Below are positions 9,800 to 62,385 of a DNA stretch of 64,000 nt, in pieces. The DNA comes from a virus: IMG/VR virus record IMGVR_UViG_3300010391_001464, positions 1 through 64,000 of that record. One strand, written 5' to 3'. Position numbers and translations under genes: made by a program. Under the pieces are notes generated by a model. That model was not told where the DNA came from and did not search any database. It worked only from the letters and a program-made list of their open reading frames with translations. Within the stretch, counting starts at the first letter, position 1; every line of letters begins with the position of its first letter.

Positions 9800-10687
9800 A
9801 TGGGGTATGAAGAAGATTATGCAGGATTAGCTGATTCTGGTTTTGAAGGTGGAAAAGAACAAGTAAAACCAGAAGACGAATTTTTCCATAGTTTGTATAT
9901 TTCAGGAAAACTTAGAAAGAATCATCTTCTAATAGATGAACAACCTGGGAAGTTACAAATTAGAGGTGTTAAATATAACCTCGATGAAGTACATATGATT
10001 ATTACTAATGTAAAGAAGGTTTTAGTAAAAGAAGAGAAAAAGGACGGAAGAGATACAACTACATGTTTCTCATTTAAACAGGGAAATTCACCATATAAAG
10101 GAAATAGCGGTAATACATGTGGATTAAATTCTGCTGAAAGAGCATCTTCGACCTTTTGTTCAATATGTAAGGAACAAATAATTGTCTCTGGAATTCTTAG
10201 TTCAAAAGAAGGAAAACCAGAATTATCACCTGAAAATAAACCGATTTTTGTATTCTTAAGAGCTAAGGGAATGAAGTATTCTAATATTGGAAATTATTTA
10301 TCAGATCTAGTAAAATTGGATTTATCACCTATCATAACTCCAGCAACAGAAGAATCAAAGAAATTTGAGAAAATTGCAGTTAATAATAAAAGATTTGTAA
10401 CTTCAATAAAAGTAGGTACTGCTAATTCAAAACATGGAATTCAGCAAGTATTTGATTTAACTAAGGGAAATCAGCTTAGTGACAATGATGTTAAGAAAAT
10501 TTTAGAAATTGCAAAAAAGACAGTAGAAAAGTTTAATGAAAAATTTGACTGGTCTAAACGATCAAATTCTACATCTACTGGTTATGCTCCTCAAGCTTTA
10601 GCAGAAAATCAATTTGAAAGTAAAAAATCAGAAGAAACAACAAAGAAGGAAAATTCAAATTTTTCTTTTGACGACATTCAGTTTTAG
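9800..10687 (+). CDS. Putative single-stranded DNA-binding protein
   Basis: 295 aa with flexible tail ending in acidic/aromatic FSFDDIQF; replication context; followed by a strong terminator. Confidence 0.6.
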   Translation: MGYEEDYAGLADSGFEGGKEQVKPEDEFFHSLYISGKLRKNHLLIDEQPGKLQIRGVKYNLDEVHMIITNVKKVLVKEEKKDGRDTTTCFSFKQGNSPYKGNSGNTCGLNSAERASSTFCSICKEQIIVSGILSSKEGKPELSPENKPIFVFLRAKGMKYSNIGNYLSDLVKLDLSPIITPATEESKKFEKIAVNNKRFVTSIKVGTANSKHGIQQVFDLTKGNQLSDNDVKKILEIAKKTVEKFNEKFDWSKRSNSTSTGYAPQALAENQFESKKSEETTKKENSNFSFDDIQF

Positions 10688-10704
10688 TAGTAAGGTTATA
10701 ACAT

Positions 10705-33578: not shown

Positions 33579-33694
33579 ATAAACTTTTTAAATTCAAACA
33601 GTCCTTATTTTAAAATGATAATTATTATGTTTATTTTCTTAAAAGATTCCTAATTATCATAAACCTTTATAAACAAAAAATTAGGAGATATAGA

Positions 33695-34255
33695 ATGGAT
33701 AGTAAGTATACCTATGAGAATCTTGAAGTAATGACAGTTGCAGAATTAAAGGGAATTGTAAAGGAACTTGGTGTTACTGGTTATAGTAAGTCCACAAAAT
33801 ATGATATTATTGATATGATTCTTTCAGAACAGGGAGTAGAAGTAACTCAAGAAAATTTAGCAGAGAAGACTATTGCAGAGTTAAAAGACATTGCAAGAAA
33901 TCTTGATATGAAGGTTGAGAAGGGTGTTACCAAGGCAGATTTATTAAACAGAATTCTTGCAGTAGATGCAGGCGGTAAGGATGAAGTACATGCATTCGGT
34001 GGTAACATAGAAGCAGCACATAATATGGTTCAGGGTGGTCCTGCAACTATTACCGTATCATGTGGTGCTTCTGGTGGTAAATTTCCTGTTATCGGAAAGA
34101 CAGTTAATGCAGTTGCAGATTTCTTAAAAGAAATCCTCAACATTGATCCGACCGCAACAGCCATGGTTAACGGCGAGTCAGTCAAAGGAAACTTTGTACT
34201 CGGTGAGGGTGACAACGTCGAATTTGTAAAGCAAGCTGGATCAAAAGGCTGCTAA
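33695..34255 (+). CDS. Ubiquitin-like (beta-grasp) protein with two N-terminal Rho-N/HeH-like repeats
   Basis: LEVMTVAELKGIVKELGVTGYSKSTKYDIIDMIL and LAEKTIAELKDIARNL...TKADLLNRIL; C-terminal AMVNGESV...VLGEGDNVEFVKQAGSKGC (ThiS/MoaD-like strand pattern, PRTRC-C-like GxKG tail). Confidence 0.8.
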   Translation: MDSKYTYENLEVMTVAELKGIVKELGVTGYSKSTKYDIIDMILSEQGVEVTQENLAEKTIAELKDIARNLDMKVEKGVTKADLLNRILAVDAGGKDEVHAFGGNIEAAHNMVQGGPATITVSCGASGGKFPVIGKTVNAVADFLKEILNIDPTATAMVNGESVKGNFVLGEGDNVEFVKQAGSKGC

Positions 34256-42900: not shown

Positions 42901-43006
42901 AGAAACAGATTTAGTTAAAGAAGAAAAAGAGATTGATTCTGTATCAGAGTCAGTTAAATTACTGAATGCATACCTCACTGTAATAGGTGTAGATCGTAAA
43001 AACTAA
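39977..43006 (+). CDS. rpoB: DNA-directed RNA polymerase beta-like subunit (set 2)
   Basis: GRICPVDTPDRENCG, PFLEHDDQTRLQMSSSQMRQA, GYNYEDGIVIS, GDKIGNRHGNKG, NPLGIISRMNIGQ, GGQRCGEME; TTG start after AGGAGG at 39962. Confidence 0.96.
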   Translation: MNIINPNFKVNEDKNIFNIRQKEFDNLEPLIRQTISPVEELGFTVKEFGIRESRYTAGDLSKTLKQNIVIKLEKNSTDIDITLAMPTLVDKNYIVIGGRKKIPQFQLFDVPVITRGKSTKIRTNVATIIVEEEKNPPFISVTVLSKKVPLSLIIFAKYSKQEIIDRFKLVDLDEESLKRDNYYEKLLYDLKKTYIEAINSEMTQDDFIKALGEYYSKYNAKVKGEDVIYALDIMLKVDIMTARFFKSKNIIDEIIEVIKLGEIDDLDYRNKRIRCFEYIVLAKVSKIIFDLCTSNRSLKQPKFNVNSTQILTECNVSDIVQFDFSINPIEELTKLSRVSLVGPGGFDKQNIPEHLRDVAPTMFGRICPVDTPDRENCGVQHNLLPNVDLDENLKFTDKILDKQPISIPVAMVPFLEHDDQTRLQMSSSQMRQAIMLKDFDQALVQSGIEGIYTDQTQFLKRAKKDGEILYVDNKYIIVVYDDKEVEIFDISYRKIYVGNMDIFKVYIKQGDKVKRGDILAESNYCHDGRIQFGKNLLTGVMIHYGYNYEDGIVISDRLVKDGILTSPHFVDLSFNIPTNKVLLTLDSKKYKPLPEIGEEIKNGNPYAIIKEMPTDNMVDYYTVFEESNPLLTKNDTIVTEANIFINEWNENIPEFNHWVKDVIKKQNREEEQFQGILNEYLPKDSATKFIKDNDLDKFSSVGKYKIKNEKINGIHVEMYGIFFRPIKVGDKIGNRHGNKGIISNIVPHDKMPKLEDGRHLDICINPLGIISRMNIGQLFELHLTMSINDLKKNLLVMLNSSSNTKQIDMKKYLIEYIKILDNTVGNWYSCQFISQIPKVIDENFINNLFIVQPPFESTPIQKIEEALKFTGTNFTYNLHDPISNHNFLNKIAVGYMYFFRMVHIAENRLAARGIASYARRTLQPLAGRKNRGGQRCGEMETACLIAHDAPHNLYEFQTTKSDCIDLKNKYIREQIETDLVKEEKEIDSVSESVKLLNAYLTVIGVDRKN

Positions 43007-43015
43007 CTAAAAGAA

Positions 43016-43035
43016 GGGATATATTTATATATCCC
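43016..43035. promoter_or_regulatory. 20-bp intergenic palindrome GGGATATAT-TT-ATATATCCC
   Basis: Counterpart of 12007-12026 with a compensatory arm change. Confidence 0.5.
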
Positions 43036-43050
43036 ATAAGGGAGAAACAA

Positions 43051-43347
43051 ATGACTACTGTAACAATCGTAACATTAACTATCGAACAAGTAAAAGCTTA
43101 TTTTGAAGGAAAGGGTCTAAATGTTGAAGATCCTGGAACCACTAATCTAACTTATAACAAGATGTTAGTTATAGAAAAAGATGCTGAAGCAACATATGGC
43201 AAAGAATTTTCAAAGTTCGTACGTAGTATCTGGGACAAAACCACAAAAGAGTCAGCAACAGGAAAGCGTAAATTTTGGAATTACTTTCCAAAGTACAAGT
43301 CATGGAATGATTTGACAACTGCCTATACTGCCTCTATAAAGAAGTAA
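43051..43347 (+). CDS. Hypothetical protein closing the RNAP set 2 operon
   Basis: 98 aa, RBS AAGGGAG. Confidence 0.7.
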   Translation: MTTVTIVTLTIEQVKAYFEGKGLNVEDPGTTNLTYNKMLVIEKDAEATYGKEFSKFVRSIWDKTTKESATGKRKFWNYFPKYKSWNDLTTAYTASIKK

Positions 43348-43489
43348 GCTTAGATAAAAGTGGAGTTGGTTAACCCTGCCATATAATAGGGAGTGGTAAA
43401 CACTTTTTCTAAACTACAGTTGGTGGAAACTTTAAAAGCCATATAGGATTTTTTAAATTGGTAGGGACCATGGTTGGAGGGGACTCTAT

Positions 43490-43519
43490 AAAATCTATTC
43501 ATTAGAATAGATTTTTTTT
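43490..43519 (+). terminator. Intrinsic terminator
   Basis: AAAATCTATTC-ATTA-GAATAGATTTT running into a T8 tract. Confidence 0.7.
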
Positions 43520-43582
43520 AGTCAAAAAAAGTTTTAAAAAAATATCTAGTACACGTTTTTAATTTTAATTGAAACAAATTCC

Positions 43583-43596
43583 TATATATATTAATT
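43583..43596 (+). promoter_or_regulatory. Putative class B promoter (TATATATATTAATT)
   Basis: Identical to 9080-9093; follows a terminator and precedes RBS AGGAGG. Confidence 0.55.
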
Positions 43597-43615
43597 TCTA
43601 AGGAGGAAGTTTATT

Positions 43616-43648
43616 ATGACCAAACACTAGCTTATTCGTCCGCCGTAA
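43616..43648 (+). CDS. Putative leader peptide MTKH-(TAG)-LIRPP-TAA
   Basis: RBS AGGAGG at 43601-43606; codons ATG ACC AAA CAC TAG CTT ATT CGT CCG CCG TAA. Confidence 0.55.
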
Positions 43649-43701
43649 AGTAATCTCTTTTATGTAGTATTATTAATTAAAAAACTAAAAAGGAGATTAC
43701 T
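43649..43701 (+). promoter_or_regulatory. RBS-sequestering hairpin for gene 43705
   Basis: AGTAATCTCTTTT (43649-43661) pairs with AAAGGAGATTACT (43689-43701): 13 bp with one G-U, covering AGGAG. Confidence 0.65.
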
Positions 43702-43704
43702 AAA

Positions 43705-44118
43705 ATGAATACGATTCAAAACACACCAAAAGAACTATTCAAATCAAAAGAACAATATCTACAGTTCATTCAAGCATGGAAAAAAGCATATAAAGAAAAT
43801 AAACAATCTTTAACTTTAAAGCAACATATGTTGTACGCAATGTTCAGAAATAAAGATTGGAGAAAATGTTGTACTCCATGTACTAATAAAAATAAAATTA
43901 ATAATGGTCAAAAACCAAATCAAACCACATTTACTGCATTTTTTGAATTAAGAAGAAATTATAGAAGTTTATGTGTTTTTGGTGAAAATGTTACGAATGA
44001 AATGTACGATAATTTAATTTCAAAATATCTTCCTGACCCAAAAGAGTTTAATTTAGGCGATTCAATTCCAAATTCCCCATATAAGGTTATAAATGAAACT
44101 GTTTGTTCTGGTTCGTAA
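43705..44118 (+). CDS. Hypothetical protein upstream of Pth2
   Basis: 137 aa, overlaps the Pth2-like gene. Confidence 0.7.
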   Translation: MNTIQNTPKELFKSKEQYLQFIQAWKKAYKENKQSLTLKQHMLYAMFRNKDWRKCCTPCTNKNKINNGQKPNQTTFTAFFELRRNYRSLCVFGENVTNEMYDNLISKYLPDPKEFNLGDSIPNSPYKVINETVCSGS

Positions 44119-44389
44119 GGACCTTAGTAAAAATCAACAAGCAGTTCAAGCTGGACATGTAGTAGCTCAATATCTATTACATGTCCAGAATCATTCATGG
44201 ACTAACGGAACATTAATCTATCTCGGAGTTGATAATAAAGAAGAGCTAGAGATATGGGGAGATAAATTAGACATGCAAGGATTAAACTGGGTTGGATTTA
44301 AAGAACCTGATTTGAATAATGAAATGACTGCATTAAGTATTGCTTCAGATGAAAATCCTTTCAAAAGATTAAAACTAATGGAATTATAA
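44093..44389 (+). CDS. Peptidyl-tRNA hydrolase type 2 (Pth2)-like protein
   Basis: KLFVLVRKDLS..QQAVQAGH, L.V.NKEEL, FKEPDL.NEMTALSI. Confidence 0.8.
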   Translation: MKLFVLVRKDLSKNQQAVQAGHVVAQYLLHVQNHSWTNGTLIYLGVDNKEELEIWGDKLDMQGLNWVGFKEPDLNNEMTALSIASDENPFKRLKLMEL

Positions 44390-44487
44390 ACATGGGATTG
44401 ATGTAATAACCAAGACAGTACGAAGAGGATAGACATATAACACACCATCATTCTCTTAACGACAATCGGGTAAATCAGTCCCATGTT
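44389..44487 (+). ncRNA. Candidate ~100-nt structured RNA
   Basis: 14-bp closing stem AACATGGGATTGAT/ATCAGTCCCATGTT and inner stem AAGAGGAT/ATTCTCTT, each with one G-U pair. Confidence 0.45.
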
Positions 44488-44502
44488 ATTAAAAAAGTAA
44501 AC

Positions 44503-44574
44503 ACCTCATTAGCTCAGCGGTAGAGCGATGGTCCCTAAAACCAAATGTCACGGGTTCAAATCCTGTATGAGGTA
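44503..44574 (+). tRNA. tRNA with CUA anticodon (putative amber suppressor); atypical C33, no encoded CCA
   Basis: Acceptor ACCTCAT/ATGAGGT, D-arm GCTC/GAGC, anticodon arm TGGT-CCCTAAA-ACCA, T-arm ACGGG-TTCAAAT-CCTGT. Confidence 0.7.
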
Positions 44575-44608
44575 TTTAATATTAACCACTAACCAATAAG
44601 GACAAAAC

Positions 44609-45355
44609 ATGAAGAGGATTTTCGGAACTATCATCTTATTAGTTTTAGTAGCATCTAGTGCTTTCGCATATCGTCCCTTTTACACAGAAGATGCTGAGAT
44701 TGTAGGTGATAAAGTATTTCAAAATGAATTCAGTATCGATCAAATAGAATGGAAGTCAGAAGACACAGACACAATTATTACTGACATTGTTTATTACGGA
44801 ATAAATAAGAATATTCATGTTGCTGCTGGCATCCCTTATTCCAAACATAAGATCTATAAAGGAGACTCATTCAAAGGATATGGAGATTTTTTCCTTGTCG
44901 GAAAATATATTGTTATAAGAGATAAGAATGATATGGCAAGGATTGCTATCAAAGCTACCGGAAAATGGAATAATGGTAGTTATGATAAATATGTTGGTTT
45001 TGGAGATAAGGAATATGCAGGTATTCTTTGTTTTACTCAACCAATATCTGAAAAGATACTTGTCCATGCTCAAAGTGGATATACAGTCGTAACTGACAGA
45101 AAAAATCCCGACTATAAGAATTATTGGTTATATGCTGTCGGTACTGACCTTACCATAACAAAGAAAGGTCATTTAATTGCAGAATTAATCGCCAATAAAA
45201 ATTTAATCTCAACTCTTCAACAGCAGAGGTTCATAAATGTTGGAGGATATTATATTATTAATAATTACTGGAATTTTGACTTAACTTATCGTAATGGATT
45301 AACTGATACAGCTCAAGATCATGGTTTTGGTGTTGGCCTTGTATTTCATTATTAA
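44609..45355 (+). CDS. Outer-membrane beta-barrel protein (putative transporter)
   Basis: Sec signal peptide ending SSAFA, then YRPFYTEDA, alternating amphipathic strands, C-terminal GFGVGLVFHY beta-signal. Confidence 0.7.
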   Translation: MKRIFGTIILLVLVASSAFAYRPFYTEDAEIVGDKVFQNEFSIDQIEWKSEDTDTIITDIVYYGINKNIHVAAGIPYSKHKIYKGDSFKGYGDFFLVGKYIVIRDKNDMARIAIKATGKWNNGSYDKYVGFGDKEYAGILCFTQPISEKILVHAQSGYTVVTDRKNPDYKNYWLYAVGTDLTITKKGHLIAELIANKNLISTLQQQRFINVGGYYIINNYWNFDLTYRNGLTDTAQDHGFGVGLVFHY

Positions 45356-45370
45356 AAAATTTGAGGAAAT

Positions 45371-45744
45371 ATGAAACCTATCAAAAATATAACTAAATGT
45401 GGAGCAATATGTATGGATAAGACCAAATAATAAGATTACCAAGAGGACTCCCTGTTTTATATATAGTTGCTTGGCCATTCGATTTTTTATATACTATATA
45501 TAAGAAAGAATTTAAAAGATATGGGATCAGTTATACAGAAGATGACACTAAGTTTTATATTAAAGGATTTGTTTCTGGAGATACTCATGAGAAAGGACTT
45601 AGTATTGTAGCACTCGACAATGAGAAATGCTGTCTTTTGTATTATCGAGATGAAAAAGCTGAAATAATACGAAAAACTGCAAGGCTCGGATGGTACAGAA
45701 GAAATGAAATTATGGATGCTGGTATTGCAAATTGTCCCTACTAA
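45371..45744 (+). CDS. Hypothetical protein missed by the ORF track (frameshift at ~45420)
   Basis: ATG after GAGG gives MKPIKNITKCGAICMDK; one extra A continues DQIIRLPRGLPVLYIVAWPF...AGIANCPY-TAA. Confidence 0.45.
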
Positions 45745-45765
45745 ATTATTAAGATAGGAGTAAAT

Positions 45766-46386
45766 ATGTCTACGAGTACACCTACTACACCAGAAGTAAA
45801 AAAGAAAGGGATCTTCAATAGGGCCCTTGATATTTTAGTTCCGCCAATTGAAGAAAAACCTTCAGTACAACCTCAAACACAGAGTGTTGTATCTGAGGTA
45901 AAAAGTATAAAATCTCCCAAAATTGACCAGGATATGTACGCATCTATCATGGAAGCATTGAAGGGAAGAGGGAGAGTTTTTCATGAATTTATGGGGAAGT
46001 CAGAGGAAATGAAAACCTTCGTTCCTGACGAGCCGGCGAGAATAAAAGCAACATCTATTGCGATGTCAGTTTCTAAGGAAGCTCTTTCATCTGCCATTAA
46101 TGAGATCAGAACTGGTCTTACTGTTGAGAAAAATGGGTTTAGTATTGAAATTGAAAAAGCTTTAAAAGATAATTCACTCATTACAAACAATATCAACAGC
46201 ATAGAGAAACAAATATCAGATCTTCAAGAAAAACTTGTTAGTCTTACAGAAAAGAAAACAAGTATGGCAACAGAACTTCAGGAGAAAATTCAAAAAGTTG
46301 AATCAATAAAAGAAATTTTTGAAGCAACTCTTGCAGCAATTACATCTGAGATCGATGCAATGGAATCAAAAATAAACTTCATATAA
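45766..46386 (+). CDS. Coiled-coil protein, first gene of the ABC/OmpA cassette
   Basis: 206 aa, heptad-rich C-terminal half, RBS AGGAG. Confidence 0.7.
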   Translation: MSTSTPTTPEVKKKGIFNRALDILVPPIEEKPSVQPQTQSVVSEVKSIKSPKIDQDMYASIMEALKGRGRVFHEFMGKSEEMKTFVPDEPARIKATSIAMSVSKEALSSAINEIRTGLTVEKNGFSIEIEKALKDNSLITNNINSIEKQISDLQEKLVSLTEKKTSMATELQEKIQKVESIKEIFEATLAAITSEIDAMESKINFI

Positions 46387-46396
46387 GGGGGCAACC

Positions 46397-47416
46397 ATGG
46401 ATATAGGTGATAAATCAAAATCATTTTGGGAACGTCCGGAGGGAACAACTGGAATGATAACATTAGCACTTCTAGGAATAGGCGGTGCTATTCTGTTAAG
46501 TACTGTTCTTCCCTTCATCATATCTCTTTTACAGAATACTATATATGCAGCTTTCCTTTTTACGATCCTTGCAGCTATTGTATTTCTGGTAACAAATAAG
46601 AAGATAAGAACTATAGTATCTTATATGTTCAAATCAATCATGAGGTCAATGACAAATGTTTTTATTACAATTGACCCTATCGGAATATTAAAGAATTATA
46701 TTTCCGATCTTGAAAGTAGTCTTGTAGACATGGATGAACAGAATGCAATAGTGAAAGGACAAATAAGAGCTCTAGACATAGAAATAAATAATAATGAGTC
46801 TAAGAGACAAAAGTCCCTAAATATCGCAAAGGTTGCAAATGAACAGGGACAAAAACTTGCTGTTACTCTTGAAGGAAGAAAGGCCGGAAGACTTAAAGAA
46901 ACAAATTTAACATATCAAGGGCTCAGAACCAAGTTTGAGCTCTTATATCGTACATTAATAAAAATGTACGAAAGATCTGACTTTCTTCTACAAGATATGA
47001 AGTCAGAAGTAGAAGTAAAAGAAAAAGAATATAATATAGTTAAAGCATCCTATTCTGCCTATAGGTCGGCAGTAAAGATAGTCAATGGTGATAAGGATGC
47101 AAGAGAACTTTTCGAACAGACCATGGAATATTTGGCTGAAGACTATGGAAAGAAGCTCGGAGAAATTGAACACTTTATGGAAACCAGTCAAAAATTTGTA
47201 GCTTCAGTTGATATTCAAAATGGAATATATGAAGCAGATGCTCTGAAGAATCTGGAAACATGGGAAAAAGACATGGATAATATTCTTCTTCCGGGCCCAG
47301 AAAAAAGAGAACTGATCGAAATGTCAAACGATATCAGTCATCCCCTTGTTTTTGAAAAAGAAAAAGTACCAGTTGCTGCAAGAAAGAAATCTGGAAATAA
47401 ATATCTGGATGTTTAA
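46397..47416 (+). CDS. Membrane-anchored coiled-coil protein (PspA-like architecture)
   Basis: Two N-terminal TM helices, then DPIGILKNYISDL and a long coiled coil. Confidence 0.65.
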   Translation: MDIGDKSKSFWERPEGTTGMITLALLGIGGAILLSTVLPFIISLLQNTIYAAFLFTILAAIVFLVTNKKIRTIVSYMFKSIMRSMTNVFITIDPIGILKNYISDLESSLVDMDEQNAIVKGQIRALDIEINNNESKRQKSLNIAKVANEQGQKLAVTLEGRKAGRLKETNLTYQGLRTKFELLYRTLIKMYERSDFLLQDMKSEVEVKEKEYNIVKASYSAYRSAVKIVNGDKDARELFEQTMEYLAEDYGKKLGEIEHFMETSQKFVASVDIQNGIYEADALKNLETWEKDMDNILLPGPEKRELIEMSNDISHPLVFEKEKVPVAARKKSGNKYLDV

Positions 47417-47444
47417 AAATCAATCGGAAAAGGAGAACATCTAC

Positions 47445-48986
47445 ATGCAAGGAAGACGTATGGGTCCAGCACTAAAAGGAATAATTATTTTCGCAGTTGC
47501 AGCAGCACTTTTCTTCGGATTCGTAAAGTACAAACATATGATCATACCCGAAGGAAGACAAACAAAATCAATTCTTTCTGATGACACCAAAAAGGCGGTC
47601 AAGGACGGGACCAAGGTTTACAGTATATGTGTTGTTACTTGGCCCGGATATGCAGGAGCCCAGTTATTTAACAATGGATTCTCTGCAAACAAGGATTCTG
47701 AGTATTACAAAAAGTATGGGATCATGGTTGATTTCAAGATTATAGATGACCTTAAACCCAGTCGGGATGCTTTCATTGATGGTAAATGTGATCTTCTATG
47801 GATGACATTTGACTCAATGTCCCCAGAAGCAGATTCCTTAGCTAAAGTTGGGGCAGAAGCTGTATGGGGGGCTGATAAGAGCAGAGGTGGAGATGTTGTT
47901 GTTGTTACACATGACATCAAAACTATAAATGATCTGGCCGGTCAGCCAGTAGCTTTTGCCCAAGCATCACCATCAAACTCATATCTTTTGATTCTTTTGA
48001 AAGCGGCTGGAAAGGAATGGAGTTTTATAAAACCAGTTGCTGTCGACTCGGCTATCACTGCAGCAAAATATTTCCAAGATGGGAAAGTAAAGGCTGCAAT
48101 CGTATGGTCTCCAGACGATGAAACATGTGTAAGTAAGGTTCCGGGTGCAAGAAAATTTGCATCTACAAAGACCCATACAGATGTGATAAGCGATGGATTT
48201 TGGGCCAAGAAGGAAAATGTTGAAGCCAACTTCAATGACTTCGTCAATATCTATCGTGGATGGATGATTGGAAATGCTAGAATAAATTCTTCTTCTGAGC
48301 AAAAGATTAAAGCTGCTAAGATTTTATCTTCTGGATTAAATATATCAGAAGGAGATGCAATGAATGCCTTGGATAAGGTGAGGCTTCTAACTCATGGTGA
48401 TAATATAAATCTATTTGGAATGAATTCCTCGTTTACAGGTATAACTGCAGACGACCTTTATTCCAATACTGCAAGGATTTATGAAGCCATTGGTTATGCC
48501 TCAAATTCTCCTTCATGGCGAACTGTAAGTACTAATAAGATCATTGCGGCTGCTAGTGACCTTACGTCAGAACCAGGTCAGAATGCAGAAGGTCAAATGA
48601 AATTTACCGCTGCATCTCCAAGTCTCCTAAATGAACCGGTTATCGCAAGTCAAGCTGTAAGTATTACCTTCAACACAGGTTCATCTGAAATTGATGACAA
48701 TGGAAAAGTTATCCTTCAGATAGCAGTTGGTGAAACTCTCCGGAAACTATCTTGATCAAGGGTAAAAATTGAAGGACATACTGATAACATCGGAGATCCA
48801 GCAAGCAACAGACGTCTATCAAAAAGAAGGGCAGAGTCCGTTGTTGGATATCTCGTATCTAAATATAACTTCGATCGAAACAGATTTATTGTTGATGGGA
48901 AGGGACAAGAACATCCCATTATGACAAATGAAACAGAAGAAGGTCGAAGAACAAACAGAAGAACTGAAATTGCAATTTTGAATTAA
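47445..48986 (+). CDS. ABC substrate-binding protein (NMT1/SsuA-like) fused to an OmpA-like domain; in-frame TGA at 48753-48755
   Basis: VVTWPGYAG, DKSRGGD, INDLAG, AAIVWSPD; ITFNTGSSEI, then past the TGA VKIEGHTDNIGDPASNRRLSKRRAESV...NRRTEI-TAA. Confidence 0.8.
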
Positions 48987-49110
48987 ACTTCAAGTGGAGA
49001 TGTATTATTAAATAATATTTGTTCGATAGTGTAAATCCTAGATTGCTTGTTGCAATAGGTATATCGATAAATCTGATAATACATCTCCACAATTTCTTTA
49101 AAGGAGAACT

Positions 49111-49914
49111 ATGAATTATTCTTCTCTGTTTGAATTGAGAGGATTTGTACAAGAACGAGATAAAAAAATTTTAAGCATTATTGGAACGATGGGTGTTATA
49201 TTTATATGGCAATTAATTGTAACAATATTTAATATAAATGAGGCAACATTACCTTCACCGATTAAAGTAATGTACTCATTTAAGGAGTTGCATTTTGAAG
49301 ATGCATTGATAAGAAATGCATTATATTCATTAAAATTGAACCTTCTTGGTATGACATATGCAGTTTTATTTGCATTACCCTTAGGGTTTTTAATTGGACT
49401 ATTTCCAATATTTAAACATCTTACTGAAAAACAAATAGCAGTGTTTAGATATTTACCATTGACATTACTTATAGGTGTTTTTATACATGCTTTTGGATTT
49501 TATGATATGATGAAGATGAGTTTTTTAGCAGTTGGTATTTTCGTTTATCTTCTACCTACTGTTGTACTTCGAGTAAGTGAAGTAGATGAAGTATATGTAC
49601 AAACTGTTAAAACTCTAGGTGCGTCAAAATGGCAAACGATAAAGACTATTTTTGTCCCAGGAGTCTTATCAAAAACCTTTGATGACATAATAGTCTTAGC
49701 ACCAATATCCTGGACATATATTATCATTGCTGAAATGATGAATAATACAGGTGGTTTAGGAGCTCTAGCATATCTTGCTGGACGACAATCAAGGGCAGAT
49801 AAAGCATTTGCAATCCTTGTAACTGTCTTTATAATAGGAATGATTCTAGATAAAGGATTTTCCTATCTAGATAAAATTTTCTTTAAATTCAAATATGTAA
49901 AGAAGGGGGATTGA
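49111..49914 (+). CDS. ABC transporter permease (TauC/SsuC-like)
   Basis: Multiple TM helices, LPSP, EAA-like loop YVQTVKTLGASKWQ, IIAEM...GLG. Confidence 0.88.
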   Translation: MNYSSLFELRGFVQERDKKILSIIGTMGVIFIWQLIVTIFNINEATLPSPIKVMYSFKELHFEDALIRNALYSLKLNLLGMTYAVLFALPLGFLIGLFPIFKHLTEKQIAVFRYLPLTLLIGVFIHAFGFYDMMKMSFLAVGIFVYLLPTVVLRVSEVDEVYVQTVKTLGASKWQTIKTIFVPGVLSKTFDDIIVLAPISWTYIIIAEMMNNTGGLGALAYLAGRQSRADKAFAILVTVFIIGMILDKGFSYLDKIFFKFKYVKKGD

Positions 49915-49918
49915 TAAA

Positions 49919-50719
49919 ATGAGTGTAGAATTTAAAAATACATCCCTTCCAGATATTATTGAGTTGAGAAATATAAATCAGTCATATGGTGACAAAGTAA
50001 TTATAAAAGATTTTAATTTATTAGTTGAAGATAAACCAAATATGGGGCAATTTGAAGTAATTCTAGGCGAATCTGGATGTGGAAAGTCTACTATTTTAAG
50101 ATATATCGCAGGACTACAAAAACCTACTTCAGGTGAAGTTTTTATTCATGCAAAACCAAGAACTAATGAACCGATAAGTATGGTATTCCAAAGATACTCT
50201 TCAATTCCGTGGTTATCAGTCCTTCAAAATGTAATACTTCCCTTAGATATTAGAAATGAGGGAGATAAAAAGGAAAGAGAACAAAAAGCAAGAGAAATGA
50301 TAAAAACGGTTGATCTAGAAGGGCATGAAGATAAATATGCAGTTTATCCTCTCCTTTCTGGTGGACAACTTCAGAGAGTAGCTATTGCTAGAAGTTTGAT
50401 TTCCAATCCTGAAATTTTATTAATGGATGAGCCTTTTGGGGCTCTTGATAATAATACAAGAAATAAGATGCAGGTAATGTTAGCAAAATTATGGGAGAAG
50501 TACCAATCAACTATAATCTTTGTTACCCATGATATACGCGAAGCAGTATTTTTGGCAGATAATATCTACATAATGAAGTCAAATCCCGCATATATTGAAA
50601 AACTAATTCATATTGATTTACCTTTAGTAAGAGATAGATATACTAAGAATGAAAAGAAGTTCTTAGATCTCGTAGATTATGTTGAGAATGCTCTACTAAA
50701 TATCAATGTGAAAAAATAA
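49919..50719 (+). CDS. ABC transporter ATP-binding protein (TauB/SsuB-like)
   Basis: GESGCGKST, LSGGQLQRVAIAR, LLMDEPFGALD, FVTHD. Confidence 0.95.
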   Translation: MSVEFKNTSLPDIIELRNINQSYGDKVIIKDFNLLVEDKPNMGQFEVILGESGCGKSTILRYIAGLQKPTSGEVFIHAKPRTNEPISMVFQRYSSIPWLSVLQNVILPLDIRNEGDKKEREQKAREMIKTVDLEGHEDKYAVYPLLSGGQLQRVAIARSLISNPEILLMDEPFGALDNNTRNKMQVMLAKLWEKYQSTIIFVTHDIREAVFLADNIYIMKSNPAYIEKLIHIDLPLVRDRYTKNEKKFLDLVDYVENALLNINVKK

Positions 50720-54497: not shown

Positions 54498-55835
54498 TTG
54501 GAGAATAACGTGGAAAAAGTAATACAAATAGCTAAAGAAATAAAAAAGAATAATGGTTATTGTTATATAAATGGAGGATATGTAAGAGATAAAGTTTTAG
54601 GATATCCTTCTAAAGATATTGACGTTGAAGTTTATAAGTTAAATCCACAGATTCTTTTCAATATTCTTTCTAAATTTGGAACACCAAAATTAGGAGGTAA
54701 AAGTTTTGGAGTATTCAAATTAGATGAATATGATTTTAGTCTTCCAAGAAGAGAGAAAAAGATAGGGTCCAAACATACGGATTTTGATGTAGAATGTGAT
54801 AAAAATATGACTCCAGAAGAAGCATGTATAAGAAGAGATCTAACAATAAATGCGTTATTAATGGATCCCTTTACAAATTCTATTTACGATTATTATGGTG
54901 GTCTTGACGATATAAAAAATAAAATTATTAGACATGTGTCTAATAAATTTTCTGAAGATCCTTTAAGAGTAATAAGAGTTGCAAGATTCAGTTCAAGATT
55001 TGAATTTGAAATTTATAAAGAAACTAAACTATTATGTGAGTCTCTATTATGTGAATTAAAATATTTACCAAAAGAAAGATTTTTTACTGAGTTTGAAAGT
55101 ATTTTATTAAAGAGCAAAAATCCTTCTATTGCATTTAATTTCTTATCTTCAATTGGTATAATAGAATCTTATTATCCTGAATTAGATGTATTAAAATATA
55201 TTGAGCAGGGAGAAAAATATCATCCTGAAGGATCTGTATGGAACCATGTTTTAATGGCATTAGACCAAATACCTTTAGAGGAAAGAACATTAACAACAAT
55301 GTTAGCAATTCTATGTCATGATATGGGAAAAGCAATAGTGAAGCAAGAAGATAAAGGTGATGGTCATATCTCATTTAAATATCATGCAGATGATGGTGTT
55401 TATCCAGCTGAAAAGTTTTTAAAAAGTATAACTAATGAAACTCAGTTAATAAATAATGTTTTAAATTTAGTAAAACATCATATGAGGCCATATGATTTAA
55501 AGAAACAAATTAATAAAAATAACATAAGAAGACTTGCATTAACTGTTGATATTCCTTCATTAATGATAGTACATAAAGCAGATAAATTAAGAAGAGGTTA
55601 TCAAGAATTAGATTTAGACTATATTCAGAAGATGATAAAAGTATATAATGAAATAAAAGATGAAGTTAAACCTTTAATTCAAGGAAGACATTTAATTGAA
55701 TTAGGTTTAGAACCAGGAAACTATTTTGGCCCGATCTTAAAACAAATATTTGAGTTACAAATAAATGGTGAATTCTCAAATATTGAAGATCGAATTAAAT
55801 TAGCGAAAGAGAGAAATATAATATGTCTAAAATGA
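54498..55835 (+). CDS. cca: CCA-adding enzyme / tRNA nucleotidyltransferase with HD domain
   Basis: GGYVRD, KDIDVEV, RRDLTINAL, EDPLRVIRVARF, YHPEGSVWNH, CHDMGK. Confidence 0.9.
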   Translation: MENNVEKVIQIAKEIKKNNGYCYINGGYVRDKVLGYPSKDIDVEVYKLNPQILFNILSKFGTPKLGGKSFGVFKLDEYDFSLPRREKKIGSKHTDFDVECDKNMTPEEACIRRDLTINALLMDPFTNSIYDYYGGLDDIKNKIIRHVSNKFSEDPLRVIRVARFSSRFEFEIYKETKLLCESLLCELKYLPKERFFTEFESILLKSKNPSIAFNFLSSIGIIESYYPELDVLKYIEQGEKYHPEGSVWNHVLMALDQIPLEERTLTTMLAILCHDMGKAIVKQEDKGDGHISFKYHADDGVYPAEKFLKSITNETQLINNVLNLVKHHMRPYDLKKQINKNNIRRLALTVDIPSLMIVHKADKLRRGYQELDLDYIQKMIKVYNEIKDEVKPLIQGRHLIELGLEPGNYFGPILKQIFELQINGEFSNIEDRIKLAKERNIICLK

Positions 55836-58922: not shown

Positions 58923-59193
58923 ATGAATGACTTAGAAAAAGATTTATGTAAAAAAAATGCTTTCTCTTCAAGGATATCTAGAACCAACAAGAGCAGGATA
59001 TTGCTTTGTAGTTTTTGATGATAAACATCTAGAACCAACTAGTATTCTTAATGATTCAATACATATATTAAATATAGAAACTATGGAATTAGGAAAAATT
59101 ATTGACATTATTAATGAAGATAAAGTTAAATTAGTAGATTTTACGGTAATACATAAATTTATTTGTCCAGTATTCGATAGAGTACTTGTATAG
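58923..59193 (+). CDS. Hypothetical protein (paralog pair, copy 2); extra A in the A8 run at 58950-58957
   Basis: MNDLEKDLCKK + MLSLQGYLEPTRAGYCFVVFDD aligns with copy 1 from its N-terminus. Confidence 0.5.
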
Positions 59194-61507: not shown

Positions 61508-62365
61508 GTGGTAAAAGAAAATCTACCTGATGTTCAAGAAACTAAACCGAAGATTCAAATACCAATTAATCAAGTTGGTGTAGAAAATGTAGAAGTTCCT
61601 TTCATGCTACAAACTAAAAATGGTCCTTTTCATGAGCTTACTGCAAAGACATCAATTCGTACTAATTTAGGTTCAAATAAAAAAGGAATATCAATGTCAA
61701 GGCTAATATTAACATTAAGACCTTTTTTAATGAAACCTTTAAAACACTTCTTAATTAATGATATTCTAACACAATTAAAAACAAATTTAGGAACAGATGA
61801 TAGTTTCATCAAATTTGAATTTAAACTTCCCCTGATTAAAAAATCACCAAAGTCAGAAAATGAATTTCCTTTATATTATAATTGTCAATTTGAAGGAAAA
61901 TTAGTAAATGATAAATTCTCATTTTATCAGGCAGTTAAAGTTCAATATGCATCTTATTGTCCATGTTCTGCAGAATTGTCAAAAGATTTATTAAATAAGG
62001 GTTACTCATCTCAAGGATTTCCTCATGCTCAAAGATCATATGCAACTGTAGCAATTGAACCAGTAAAAGATAAATATATATGGTTAGAAGATATTATTGA
62101 ACTAGTTGAAAAGTCTATTGCTACAATTCCATATCCAATTATTAAAAGAATAGATGAACAAGAAATAGCTCGAATTGCGTCTGAAAATCCTATTTTCGTT
62201 GAAGATGCTATTCGACAAATATCTAGCAGTTTAAATTCAAAAAGTGAAATATATGATTGGATTATAAAATGTTCTCACGAAGAGTCTATACATACTCATG
62301 AAGCTATTGCTATATCATATAAAGGAATAAAAGAAGGATTTAACGATAGATCTTTTATAATATAG
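61508..62365 (+). CDS. folE2: GTP cyclohydrolase IB (FolE2)
   Basis: LPDVQ, INQVGV, KGISMSR, SYCPCS, PHAQRS, KRIDEQ, NPIFVEDAIR, HEESIHTHEA. Confidence 0.93.
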   Translation: MVKENLPDVQETKPKIQIPINQVGVENVEVPFMLQTKNGPFHELTAKTSIRTNLGSNKKGISMSRLILTLRPFLMKPLKHFLINDILTQLKTNLGTDDSFIKFEFKLPLIKKSPKSENEFPLYYNCQFEGKLVNDKFSFYQAVKVQYASYCPCSAELSKDLLNKGYSSQGFPHAQRSYATVAIEPVKDKYIWLEDIIELVEKSIATIPYPIIKRIDEQEIARIASENPIFVEDAIRQISSSLNSKSEIYDWIIKCSHEESIHTHEAIAISYKGIKEGFNDRSFII

Positions 62366-62385
62366 TAAAGATAGGAATTTATAAG

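Follow-up and report, generated by a model that had tools for sequence, protein, structure and literature searches.

Transfer RNAs (tRNAs) whose anticodons match stop codons have been found in phages that use the standard genetic code, with two CUA tRNAs in each terminal repeat of Xanthomonas phage XacN1 and a UCA tRNA in Agrobacterium phage Atu_ph07, and the XacN1 authors could not identify the targets of the suppressor tRNAs (PMC5852040, PMC6102473). A further case is described here from a 64,000-nt stretch of viral DNA (positions 1 to 64,000 of the IMG/VR record IMGVR_UViG_3300010391_001464, hereafter the window), which forms the beginning of one virus contig of 90,144 bp and encodes at positions 44503–44574 a tRNA with anticodon CUA (tRNA-CUA). 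The window phage resembles XacN1 and Atu_ph07 in combining a stop-anticodon tRNA with the standard code, a CCA-adding enzyme and a peptidyl-tRNA hydrolase, the latter here predicted and of the Pth2 type (PMC5852040, PMC6102473). The CUA tRNAs of XacN1, however, have U33, whereas tRNA-CUA has C33, and unlike in the XacN1 paper, a target is proposed here. With a probability that we place at roughly 0.6, tRNA-CUA is a working amber suppressor that acts as the effector of a self-contained phage module, at whose end it lies, and is not a sign of genome-wide recoding; most likely it switches on its own neighbouring genes.

In phages that have reassigned TAG (code 15: crAss-like, Lak and others), suppressor tRNAs are thought to switch on a gene set late in infection (10.1101/2021.08.26.457843). 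The window phage shares with them a CUA tRNA, low GC and TAA-dominated stops (10.1101/2021.08.26.457843). In the recoded phages, however, structural and lysis genes contain numerous in-frame TAGs; the window contig has none, and the sole deliberate UAG found on it is located in an 11-codon leader.

In the attenuators of ermC, cat and cmlA, a short upstream open reading frame (ORF) led by a Shine-Dalgarno (SD) sequence lets the ribosome arrest beside a hairpin that hides the next SD. By analogy, the window leader looks like a member of this type, as a short ORF with a strong SD abuts a predicted hairpin over the next SD, and the sensed signal would be, as in prfB autoregulation, the efficiency of stop-codon reading. 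Unlike in the attenuators, the arrest would be reached only if the phage tRNA reads an internal UAG; no drug or amino acid would be sensed, and the regulated genes and the tRNA lie in one apparent unit. Genetic code expansion has provided synthetic switches in which gene output depends on amber suppression inside a leader peptide (review PMC6412442). Those UAG-leader switches are engineered, whereas the window module is natural, conserved across many phages and marked by a Pro-Pro-stop ending. Our literature search found no paper linking Pth2, phage, suppressor and stop codon and none describing the gated module; the suppressor tRNA is of a known kind, and the module, judged from its sequence, would be a variant of leader-peptide control that we did not find described.

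The UAG-gated leader and its recurrence beside CUA tRNAs

The window module comprises, in this order, a leader mini-ORF, a 13-bp helix, ORF137, a Pth2-like gene, a long hairpin and, as the last element, tRNA-CUA (Table 1). The leader codons are ATG ACC AAA CAC TAG CTT ATT CGT CCG CCG TAA (MTKH-UAG-LIRPP-UAA), with the ATG 9 nt past AAGGAGG, and the leader lies ca. 855–870 nt upstream of tRNA-CUA and 475 nt upstream of the Pth2-like ORF. Exactly one UAG-gated leader with a Pro-Pro-stop ending (43616–43648) was found in the 90-kb contig. The 13-bp helix begins at the first base past the leader UAA and contains the whole SD of ORF137, which gives the attenuator layout of a short SD-led ORF with its end abutting a helix over the SD of the next gene.

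The same parts were found in other phages. A set of 154 IMG/VR phage loci was fetched solely by a CUA-tRNA pattern, and a Pth2-like gene was detected in 60 of them (tblastn), on the strand of the tRNA among the matches listed. Just 5′ of the conserved domain, 26 of 56 scored Pth2-like copies have an in-frame TAG; in about 24 of these 26, the gene starts with ATG, 1–3 (at most 7) codons and TAG, with no further start before the domain. Such gated starts are ATG AAG AAG TAG in genome G001 and ATG TTA TAG in genome G004, and the Pth2-like gene adjoins a tRNA-CUA with C33 in G001, G004 and G005 (tblastn). The tRNAs of G001 are just the C33-CUA tRNA and one for Met. Codon 4 of the G001 Pth2-like gene is UAG and no start follows it; the enzyme would be made only if the C33-CUA tRNA or a host suppressor reads this UAG.

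The leader form of the gate was searched in the 2.58 Mb of fetched loci with a pattern of an SD, ATG, up to 5 codons, the gate, up to 14 codons ending in Pro-Pro, and a stop. The pattern gave 27 matches with a TAG gate, on the strand of the CUA tRNA among the matches listed, and none with a TAA or TGA gate. Among 94 distinct mini-ORFs with a TAG gate, 23 had a Pro-Pro ending, in 20 cases before TAA, as opposed to 0/99 and 0/96 with the other gates. The next ORF begins 48–101 nt past the leaders. When the 20 nt at the leader stop were compared for complementarity with the 20 nt before the next start, the stop-to-SD helix had a median of 7 bp in 19 distinct leaders, whereas the median was 5 bp in the controls (779 genes; p 2e-7); complementarity of at least 7 bp was found in 74% of the leaders and 17% of the controls, and reaches 13 bp in the window. 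The ORFs behind the leaders form one family, sometimes fused to a Pth2-like domain. A corresponding scan for UCA tRNAs gave 25 loci, two of them with a Pth2-like gene, and both of these genes have an early in-frame TGA and no TAG (M-E-S-TGA in one, M-N-T-N-H-E-A-TGA in the other; Table 1), as would be predicted for a gate that follows the anticodon.

In this analysis, a module was defined by a Pth2-like gene within ca. 1–3 kb of the tRNA on the same strand and by a gate that corresponds to the anticodon. The window has its Pth2-like gene within this distance and on this strand, the gate is present in its leader form, and the gate codon UAG matches the anticodon CUA. The initial annotation of the tRNA missed this proposed dedicated UAG target in the tRNA's own operon.

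ORF137 matched the post-leader ORF of locus L058 (BLASTP, E 5e-7) and is a distant member of the family found behind leaders elsewhere, where it precedes or is fused to the Pth2-like domain. For the Pth2-like protein, the Pfam PTH2 match was weak (17.5 bits against a cut-off of 23, E 0.005), but a profile of 21 members of the Pth2-like family matched the archaeal Pth2 structure PDB 2zv3 (E 1.6e-8). The AlphaFold model of the protein (pLDDT 94.5) was aligned by Foldseek to 2zv3, 3erj, 1q7s and 1xty with TM values of 0.78–0.83 and a probability of 1.0, and the protein as modelled has the Pth2 fold. The phage family shares this fold with the archaeal and eukaryotic Pth2 enzymes of these four structures at 17–27% identity, its activity being predicted, and differs from them in lacking a GKGK-type insert after the first strand and in having its own invariants Q19, H22, W36, E71 and T79, with P72 and D73 nearly so. 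The conserved EPD and Q..H motifs are candidate active-site residues. The window Pth2-like protein had no tblastn match among cultured phage records, in which other subfamilies were matched, and no DNA match was found by blastn for 43000–47000 among such records.

A terminator-like hairpin upstream of the leader was missed by a consensus terminator scan, as it has too few G-C pairs, and the module probably, if tentatively, starts its own transcript after it. The same type of scan found no terminator between the module start and tRNA-CUA, which would allow co-transcription. A promoter scan returned fewer sigma-70-like sites than shuffled sequences, which tells nothing about a phage that has RNA polymerases of its own. 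The hairpin of ca. 100 nt between the Pth2-like gene and tRNA-CUA had no Rfam match and its length is not kept elsewhere, the spacers of other modules being 6–60 nt; it is possibly a processing site.

Table 1. Positions of the module elements and related features. Positions are those of the window unless a locus is named.
Feature	Position	Strand	Details
Terminator-like hairpin	43490–43519	+	AT-rich, 11 bp, with U run; fold, z −2.5
Leader mini-ORF	43600–43648	+	AAGGAGG 43600–43606; ATG 43616; UAG 43628–43630; CCG CCG 43640–43645; UAA 43646–43648
Hairpin with 13-bp outer helix	43649–43701	+	fold; arms 43649–43661 and 43689–43701; 3′ arm contains AAGGAG 43690–43695
ORF137, small protein	43705–44118	+	ATG at 43705; no Pfam hit
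Pth2-like gene	44093–44389	+	26-nt overlap with ORF137; 113 nt 5′ of tRNA-CUA
Long stable hairpin between Pth2-like gene and tRNA-CUA	44389–44487	+	−30.7 kcal/mol; z −5.6; 0/200 shuffles as good
tRNA-CUA	44503–44574	+	anticodon 44535–44537; C33 at 44534; A27-A43 mismatch; U31-A39; discriminator A; CCA not encoded
CCA-adding-type tRNA nucleotidyltransferase with HD domain	54498–55835	+	Pfam PolyA_pol 2e-18, HD 1.4e-9, tRNA_NucTran2_2
TGA-gated Pth2-like gene of a UCA locus	L226:5152–5391(−)		early in-frame TGA
TGA-gated Pth2-like gene of a UCA locus	L230:4666–4986(−)		early in-frame TGA

XacN1 ORF364, a fusion of HD and Pth2-like domains, is preceded in frame by AGAGGA, 8 nt and ATG AAG TAG (L221:640–648). 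The region L221:640–1500 corresponds to AP018399.1 243735–244595, in which the annotated start lies 5 codons past the TAG and has no SD.

Two further gated families, which start with ATG, 0–5 codons and TAG, were observed beside CUA tRNAs and have no homologue on this contig: an HD-type family with the motif YHDCGK (loci L029, L054, L074, L084, L103 and L148) and a small family with the motif VFHFNKKHLEDPTIPMWV (L034, L067, L073, L115, L131 and L136). On the contig itself, a possible second UAG-gated gene was seen at 58927–59193, upstream of tRNA-Ala, with AGGA, ATG ACT TAG and 85 codons ending in TAG. Codon 11 of this ORF is an internal ATG, no protein family was matched, and the gated ORFs elsewhere include no homologue.

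Other observations concern the downstream side of the module. Right after tRNA-CUA, at 44609–50719, are encoded a beta-barrel-like outer membrane protein with a signal peptide (Phenol_MetA_deg), a substrate-binding protein, an ABC permease and an ABC ATPase, which by their predicted functions look together like a complete uptake system. A 411-nt stretch without a long ORF (45355–45766), just before the ORF at 45766, includes a homopolymer at 45418 in which a second assembly (see below) has an extra A, and may contain a frameshifted or miscalled gene.

The tRNA and its cytidine at position 33

ARAGORN identified four tRNAs in the window, among them the 72-nt tRNA with anticodon CTA at 44503–44574 (+), which matched RF00005 over its full length (1–71) with 63 bits against a threshold of 29 (E 2e-13, Infernal). 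It has the four stems of the cloverleaf, a D-loop GG and the T-loop TTCNANNCC, and scores above the gathering threshold. By direct reading, the anticodon stem is A27 U28 G29 G30 U31 / A39 C40 C41 A42 A43, and no other register allows the stem to pair; the loop C32 C33 C34 U35 A36 A37 A38 (CCCUAAA, 44533–44539) is 7 nt long with a purine at 37. In the Infernal alignment to RF00005, 27-43 is the sole non-canonical pair. Position 33, at which U is near-invariant in the class without defining it, is C (44534). The bases after the discriminator A are TTT, hence no CCA is encoded, whereas the other tRNAs of the window (Gln-UUG, Thr-UGU and Ala-UGC) all have U33 and an encoded CCA. The initial annotation had described the anticodon CUA with C33 in a single pairing register (loop CCCTAAA), an A-A mismatch at the top of the stem and a CCA missing only from this one of the four tRNAs; all of these were confirmed.

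The second assembly, which gives the same anticodon and C33, is a Logan contig from the probable source run, a sediment metagenome, with a mean word depth of 115, and it equals the window over 43500–45500 except for the extra A at 45418. C33 is not an artefact of this assembly, because the Logan contig, which derives from the same sample and was compared as a contig and not as raw reads, gives the same letters.

The tRNA-Pyl label assigned by ARAGORN, which arises because the anticodon alone determines it, was rejected: the tRNA has a 5-position anticodon stem, a 5-nt variable loop, a D-loop GG and a TTCAAAT T-loop, while a Pyl-type body has a 6-bp anticodon stem, a 3-nt variable loop, a small D-loop without GG and no TPsiC. 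There was no pylS or pylBCD among the annotated ORFs, with no search aimed at these genes. When the tRNA was compared with its nearest neighbours among 661 phage tRNAs and discriminator bases were tallied, no clear isotype emerged; its D-arm is of the Lys/Val/Ile/Trp type, and its body does not resemble that of Gln tRNAs. The discriminator base is not constant in the phage CUA-tRNA class, in agreement with a gate position that would accept any residue.

Neither the A27-A43 mismatch nor the lack of CCA sets this tRNA apart from its class: of the U33-type phage CUA tRNAs, about 31% have no pair at 27-43 and 31% carry no CCA. The initial annotation also proposed that the tRNA needs a CCA-adding enzyme encoded at 54498, and Pfam did detect there a PolyA_pol head and an HD domain. 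Judged by these domains, the enzyme could be an accessory that adds the missing CCA to tRNA-CUA. Such a need is possible but not required, because a CCA-adding enzyme is also present in hosts and about one third of these tRNAs do without an encoded CCA.

U33 is near-invariant and held necessary for the geometry of the loop, and C33 is known only in a few eukaryotic initiators (PMC11122139). An IMG/VR scan open at position 33 returned 23 CUA-tRNA loci, 22 with U33 and one with C33. When the loop was fixed as CCCTAAA, 13 loci with 12 distinct CUA tRNAs, the window tRNA included, were obtained, and scans for the purine-33 forms (A33 and G33) and for the U33 form gave 3 and at least 120 loci, respectively. 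The 12 C33-CUA tRNAs differ in every stem and yet keep the cloverleaf, with 96% of cells paired and compensatory changes in 13 of 21 pairs; none of 500 shuffles reached this covariation, and slid registers were also far below it. The pair U31-A39, which was not imposed by the C33 search pattern, was present in all C33-CUA tRNAs (11/11) and in 64 of 138 U33-type CUA tRNAs (p 7e-4, relatedness ignored).

Ordinary phage tRNAs also have C33: it was found in 30 of 459 (6.5%) distinct non-suppressor tRNAs from the same CUA loci (L003–L156, large-phage arrays), and its rate among CUA tRNAs (1/23) is no higher. Examples are Ile-GAU with the loop CCGATAA, Glu-UUC with CCTTCAA and Ala-UGC with CCTGCAA; the share of C33 in phage tRNAs is expected to be far above that in cellular tRNAs. 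The seven C33 modules lie dispersed over a tree built from the linked Pth2-like proteins, with 7 changes needed and at least 5 of them forced by well-supported branches. By this pattern, C33 is a tolerated variant that arises, or reverts, time and again in intact modules, in every case with U31-A39. In studies of E. coli su+7 and yeast tRNA-Phe, replacement of U33 is said to reduce function without abolishing it, and C33 may lower the decoding efficiency of tRNA-CUA.

The standard code of the contig and competing explanations

The contig has a GC percentage of 27, and under the standard code long ORFs cover 92–93% of it, nearly all on one strand. The stops of its 118 long ORFs are TAA in 82, TAG in 20 and TGA in 16 cases, which provides the count of TAG stops called for in the initial annotation. 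That annotation had noted that long ORFs contain no in-frame TAG and that gyrB, sbcC, rpoC, NADAR and folE2 end in TAG, and it excluded recoding; ORF counts agree with this, and according to Pfam the TAG-ended genes for gyrB, an SbcC-like ATPase, the RNA polymerase beta-prime subunit (rpoC), NADAR and folE2 are of full length. The contig also encodes the large terminase, a baseplate wedge protein and a virion protein, all without interruption. No recoding signal for TAG was found on the contig from coding density and same-frame ORF junctions under TAG, TGA and TAA readthrough, with TAG readthrough adding ca. 1% of coding sequence, less than TGA readthrough. Code 15 is characterized by many conserved genes with in-frame TAG, and in the 90 kb seen no long ORF is interrupted. 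The back-up stops described earlier were found as TAG TAG TAA at 10685–10693 and, for folE2, as TAG TAA at 62363–62368; the name SSB that had been given to the gene with the former was not confirmed by Pfam. The genes that end in TAG have short readthrough tails, with a median of 3 codons as opposed to 6 (one-sided p 0.04).

In just one case (65321–66472), two 60-codon open stretches share a frame with nothing but one TAG between them. A readthrough fusion was rejected there, as the downstream part has its own GGAGG and ATG and its homologues (237–254 amino acids) stand alone, and the junction is probably due to chance.

The standard code was also read in four other genomes with C33-CUA tRNAs: G001 (136 kb with terminal repeats, rated complete), G003 (356 kb, rated complete), G004 (372 kb, rated complete) and G005 (141 kb, rated 44% complete), the terminase of the last being 45% identical to that of the window phage. 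G004 carries two CUA tRNAs, one with C33 and one with U33, and one UUA (ochre) tRNA (33634–33706(−), 74251–75409(−)). The closest terminase relatives of the window phage (61–77% identity) are on contigs of 15–68 kb that carry no tRNAs and so offer no close orthologue of tRNA-CUA for comparison. The phage is probably a jumbo phage of ca. 350 kb, with the contig as about one quarter of its genome, because CheckV rates these relatives as only 5–19% complete.

Several observations weigh against a gated module that works in the window phage. The case for a gate in this phage rests wholly on one 11-codon leader, as its Pth2-like ORF has no in-frame UAG, and the base 3′ of the leader UAG is C, the rarer context found in 2 of 25 leaders, whereas a purine follows in 22 of 25. 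By their SD pairing in minimum-energy folds, leader-controlled genes could not be told from controls (p 0.25); this general measure was replaced by the specific stop-to-SD helix test, and only the latter discriminated. The match between UCA tRNAs and TGA gates rests on two loci only. The Pth2-like enzyme needs no gate, because phages that have no CUA tRNA, such as Mycobacterium phage Myrna, also carry members of the family in their tRNA arrays, with no gate. A lookup of sequencing runs for this stretch returned one DNA run, the probable source, and no RNA run. Recoded genes are possible elsewhere in the genome, given that the contig is about one quarter of it, and C33 could cripple this copy of the tRNA, as U33 is deemed necessary for loop geometry (PMC11122139).

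The last two points lead to different accounts of tRNA-CUA. It may represent a first step to recoding, a suppressor acquired and tolerated in a low-GC phage with few TAG stops, with no dedicated target or with targets in the unsequenced part of the genome. The route of Borges et al., in which suppressor tRNAs occur in standard-code relatives of recoded phages (10.1101/2021.08.26.457843), the GC content, the predominance of TAA stops, the short TAG readthrough tails and the incomplete genome all agree with this, but the structural genes of the contig have no in-frame TAG, the three complete-rated genomes with the same type of tRNA use the standard code, and the UAG-specific Pro-Pro-stop leader and the gated Pth2 genes are left unexplained. 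We consider this account unlikely on its own; it is compatible with a switch of the own operon. That the tRNA is instead crippled or decaying through C33 and A27-A43, decodes nothing and leaves the module here as a relic is quite unlikely. Its other stems and its D and T loops are intact, as are the leader, the helix and both ORFs in the window; the C33-CUA tRNAs co-vary like working tRNAs and have at least five origins on the Pth2 tree, C33 is carried by ordinary phage tRNAs of the same loci, and G001 relies on such a tRNA for its gated Pth2. In favour of decay are the near-universality of U33, the weak 4-bp anticodon stem without an encoded CCA, the lack, by loss or from the outset, of a UAG in the Pth2-like gene of this phage, and a truncated Pth2-like gene beside the C33-CUA tRNA of the relative G005.

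C33 could alternatively be adaptive, tuning suppression down or hiding the tRNA from host anticodon-loop nucleases, or, in a variant of this idea, it could be edited to U. Its independent recurrence, the constant company of U31-A39 and the 13 loci against 3 for A33 and G33 together are in line with this, and phage tRNAs have been proposed to evade anticodon nucleases by changes in the loop (PMC10264068). The eLife paper behind that proposal (PMC10264068) is, however, silent on position 33, no nuclease or deaminase is linked to C33 here, the rate of C33 in CUA tRNAs is not above that in ordinary phage tRNAs, and U-to-C, being a transition, is the change that would be expected most often; adaptation as the main explanation is unlikely. 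An assembly or sequencing error, with CUCUAAA or a sense anticodon as the true loop, has nothing besides the rarity of C33 in its favour, and its probability is negligible as the second assembly is identical at ca. 115-fold word depth and the CCCUAAA loop recurs among 12 distinct phage tRNAs. The initial annotation had left the choice between a weak or conditional suppressor and a decoy, in either case without recoding. The absence of recoding holds for the contig and the four genomes, and a conditional suppressor is broadly what the module points to; the decoy finds no support, given the strong compensatory covariation and a conserved module with a deliberate UAG in its leader or first gene.

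Proposed switch and its implications

If tRNA-CUA acts as the effector of its own module, the unit would be transcribed as leader, ORF137, Pth2-like gene, hairpin and tRNA-CUA, and the tRNA would then be excised, receive its CCA from the host or the phage enzyme and be charged by a host synthetase. Without the suppressor, ribosomes translating the leader would end at the UAG, 18 nt short of the helix, and the 13-bp helix would keep the ribosome binding site of ORF137 closed and both ORF137 and the Pth2-like gene shut. Pro-Pro before a stop is, from nascent-chain work, a slow-termination context. With the suppressor, reading would continue through L-I-R-P-P to the UAA and terminate slowly at the Pro-Pro-stop, and the ribosome paused there would sit on the 5′ arm of the helix, whose first base comes right after the UAA, so that the binding site would be freed and ORF137 and the overlapping Pth2-like gene translated.

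As tRNA-CUA lies downstream in apparently the same unit, the circuit would report its own product. The Pth2-like enzyme may recycle the peptidyl-tRNA that accumulates when stops are overridden, or else the suppressor itself may be what it acts on, in a feedback comparable to that of prfB. More broadly, and at somewhat less than even odds, the orphan suppressor tRNAs of standard-code jumbo phages may signal a widespread natural circuit that measures readthrough, in which C33 would be a repeatedly selected setting that keeps suppression low and spares ordinary TAG stops. In such a circuit, a UAG in a Pro-Pro-stop leader or at the gene start would limit the Pth2-type enzyme and its partner to conditions of active suppressor.

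The suppressor tRNAs of standard-code phages have lacked a known purpose, and a target in the tRNA's own operon is proposed here, in a design that recurs in dozens of loci. C at the "universal U33" site is accepted again and again in phage tRNAs. XacN1 is a cultured phage whose HD-Pth2 gene shows the same early UAG, and the question can be tested there. If the proposal is true, stop-codon readthrough by a virus-made tRNA would be a new input to leader-peptide switches, peptidyl-tRNA recycling would be tied to suppression, and phages with such modules would be a plausible intermediate between standard-code and recoded phages.

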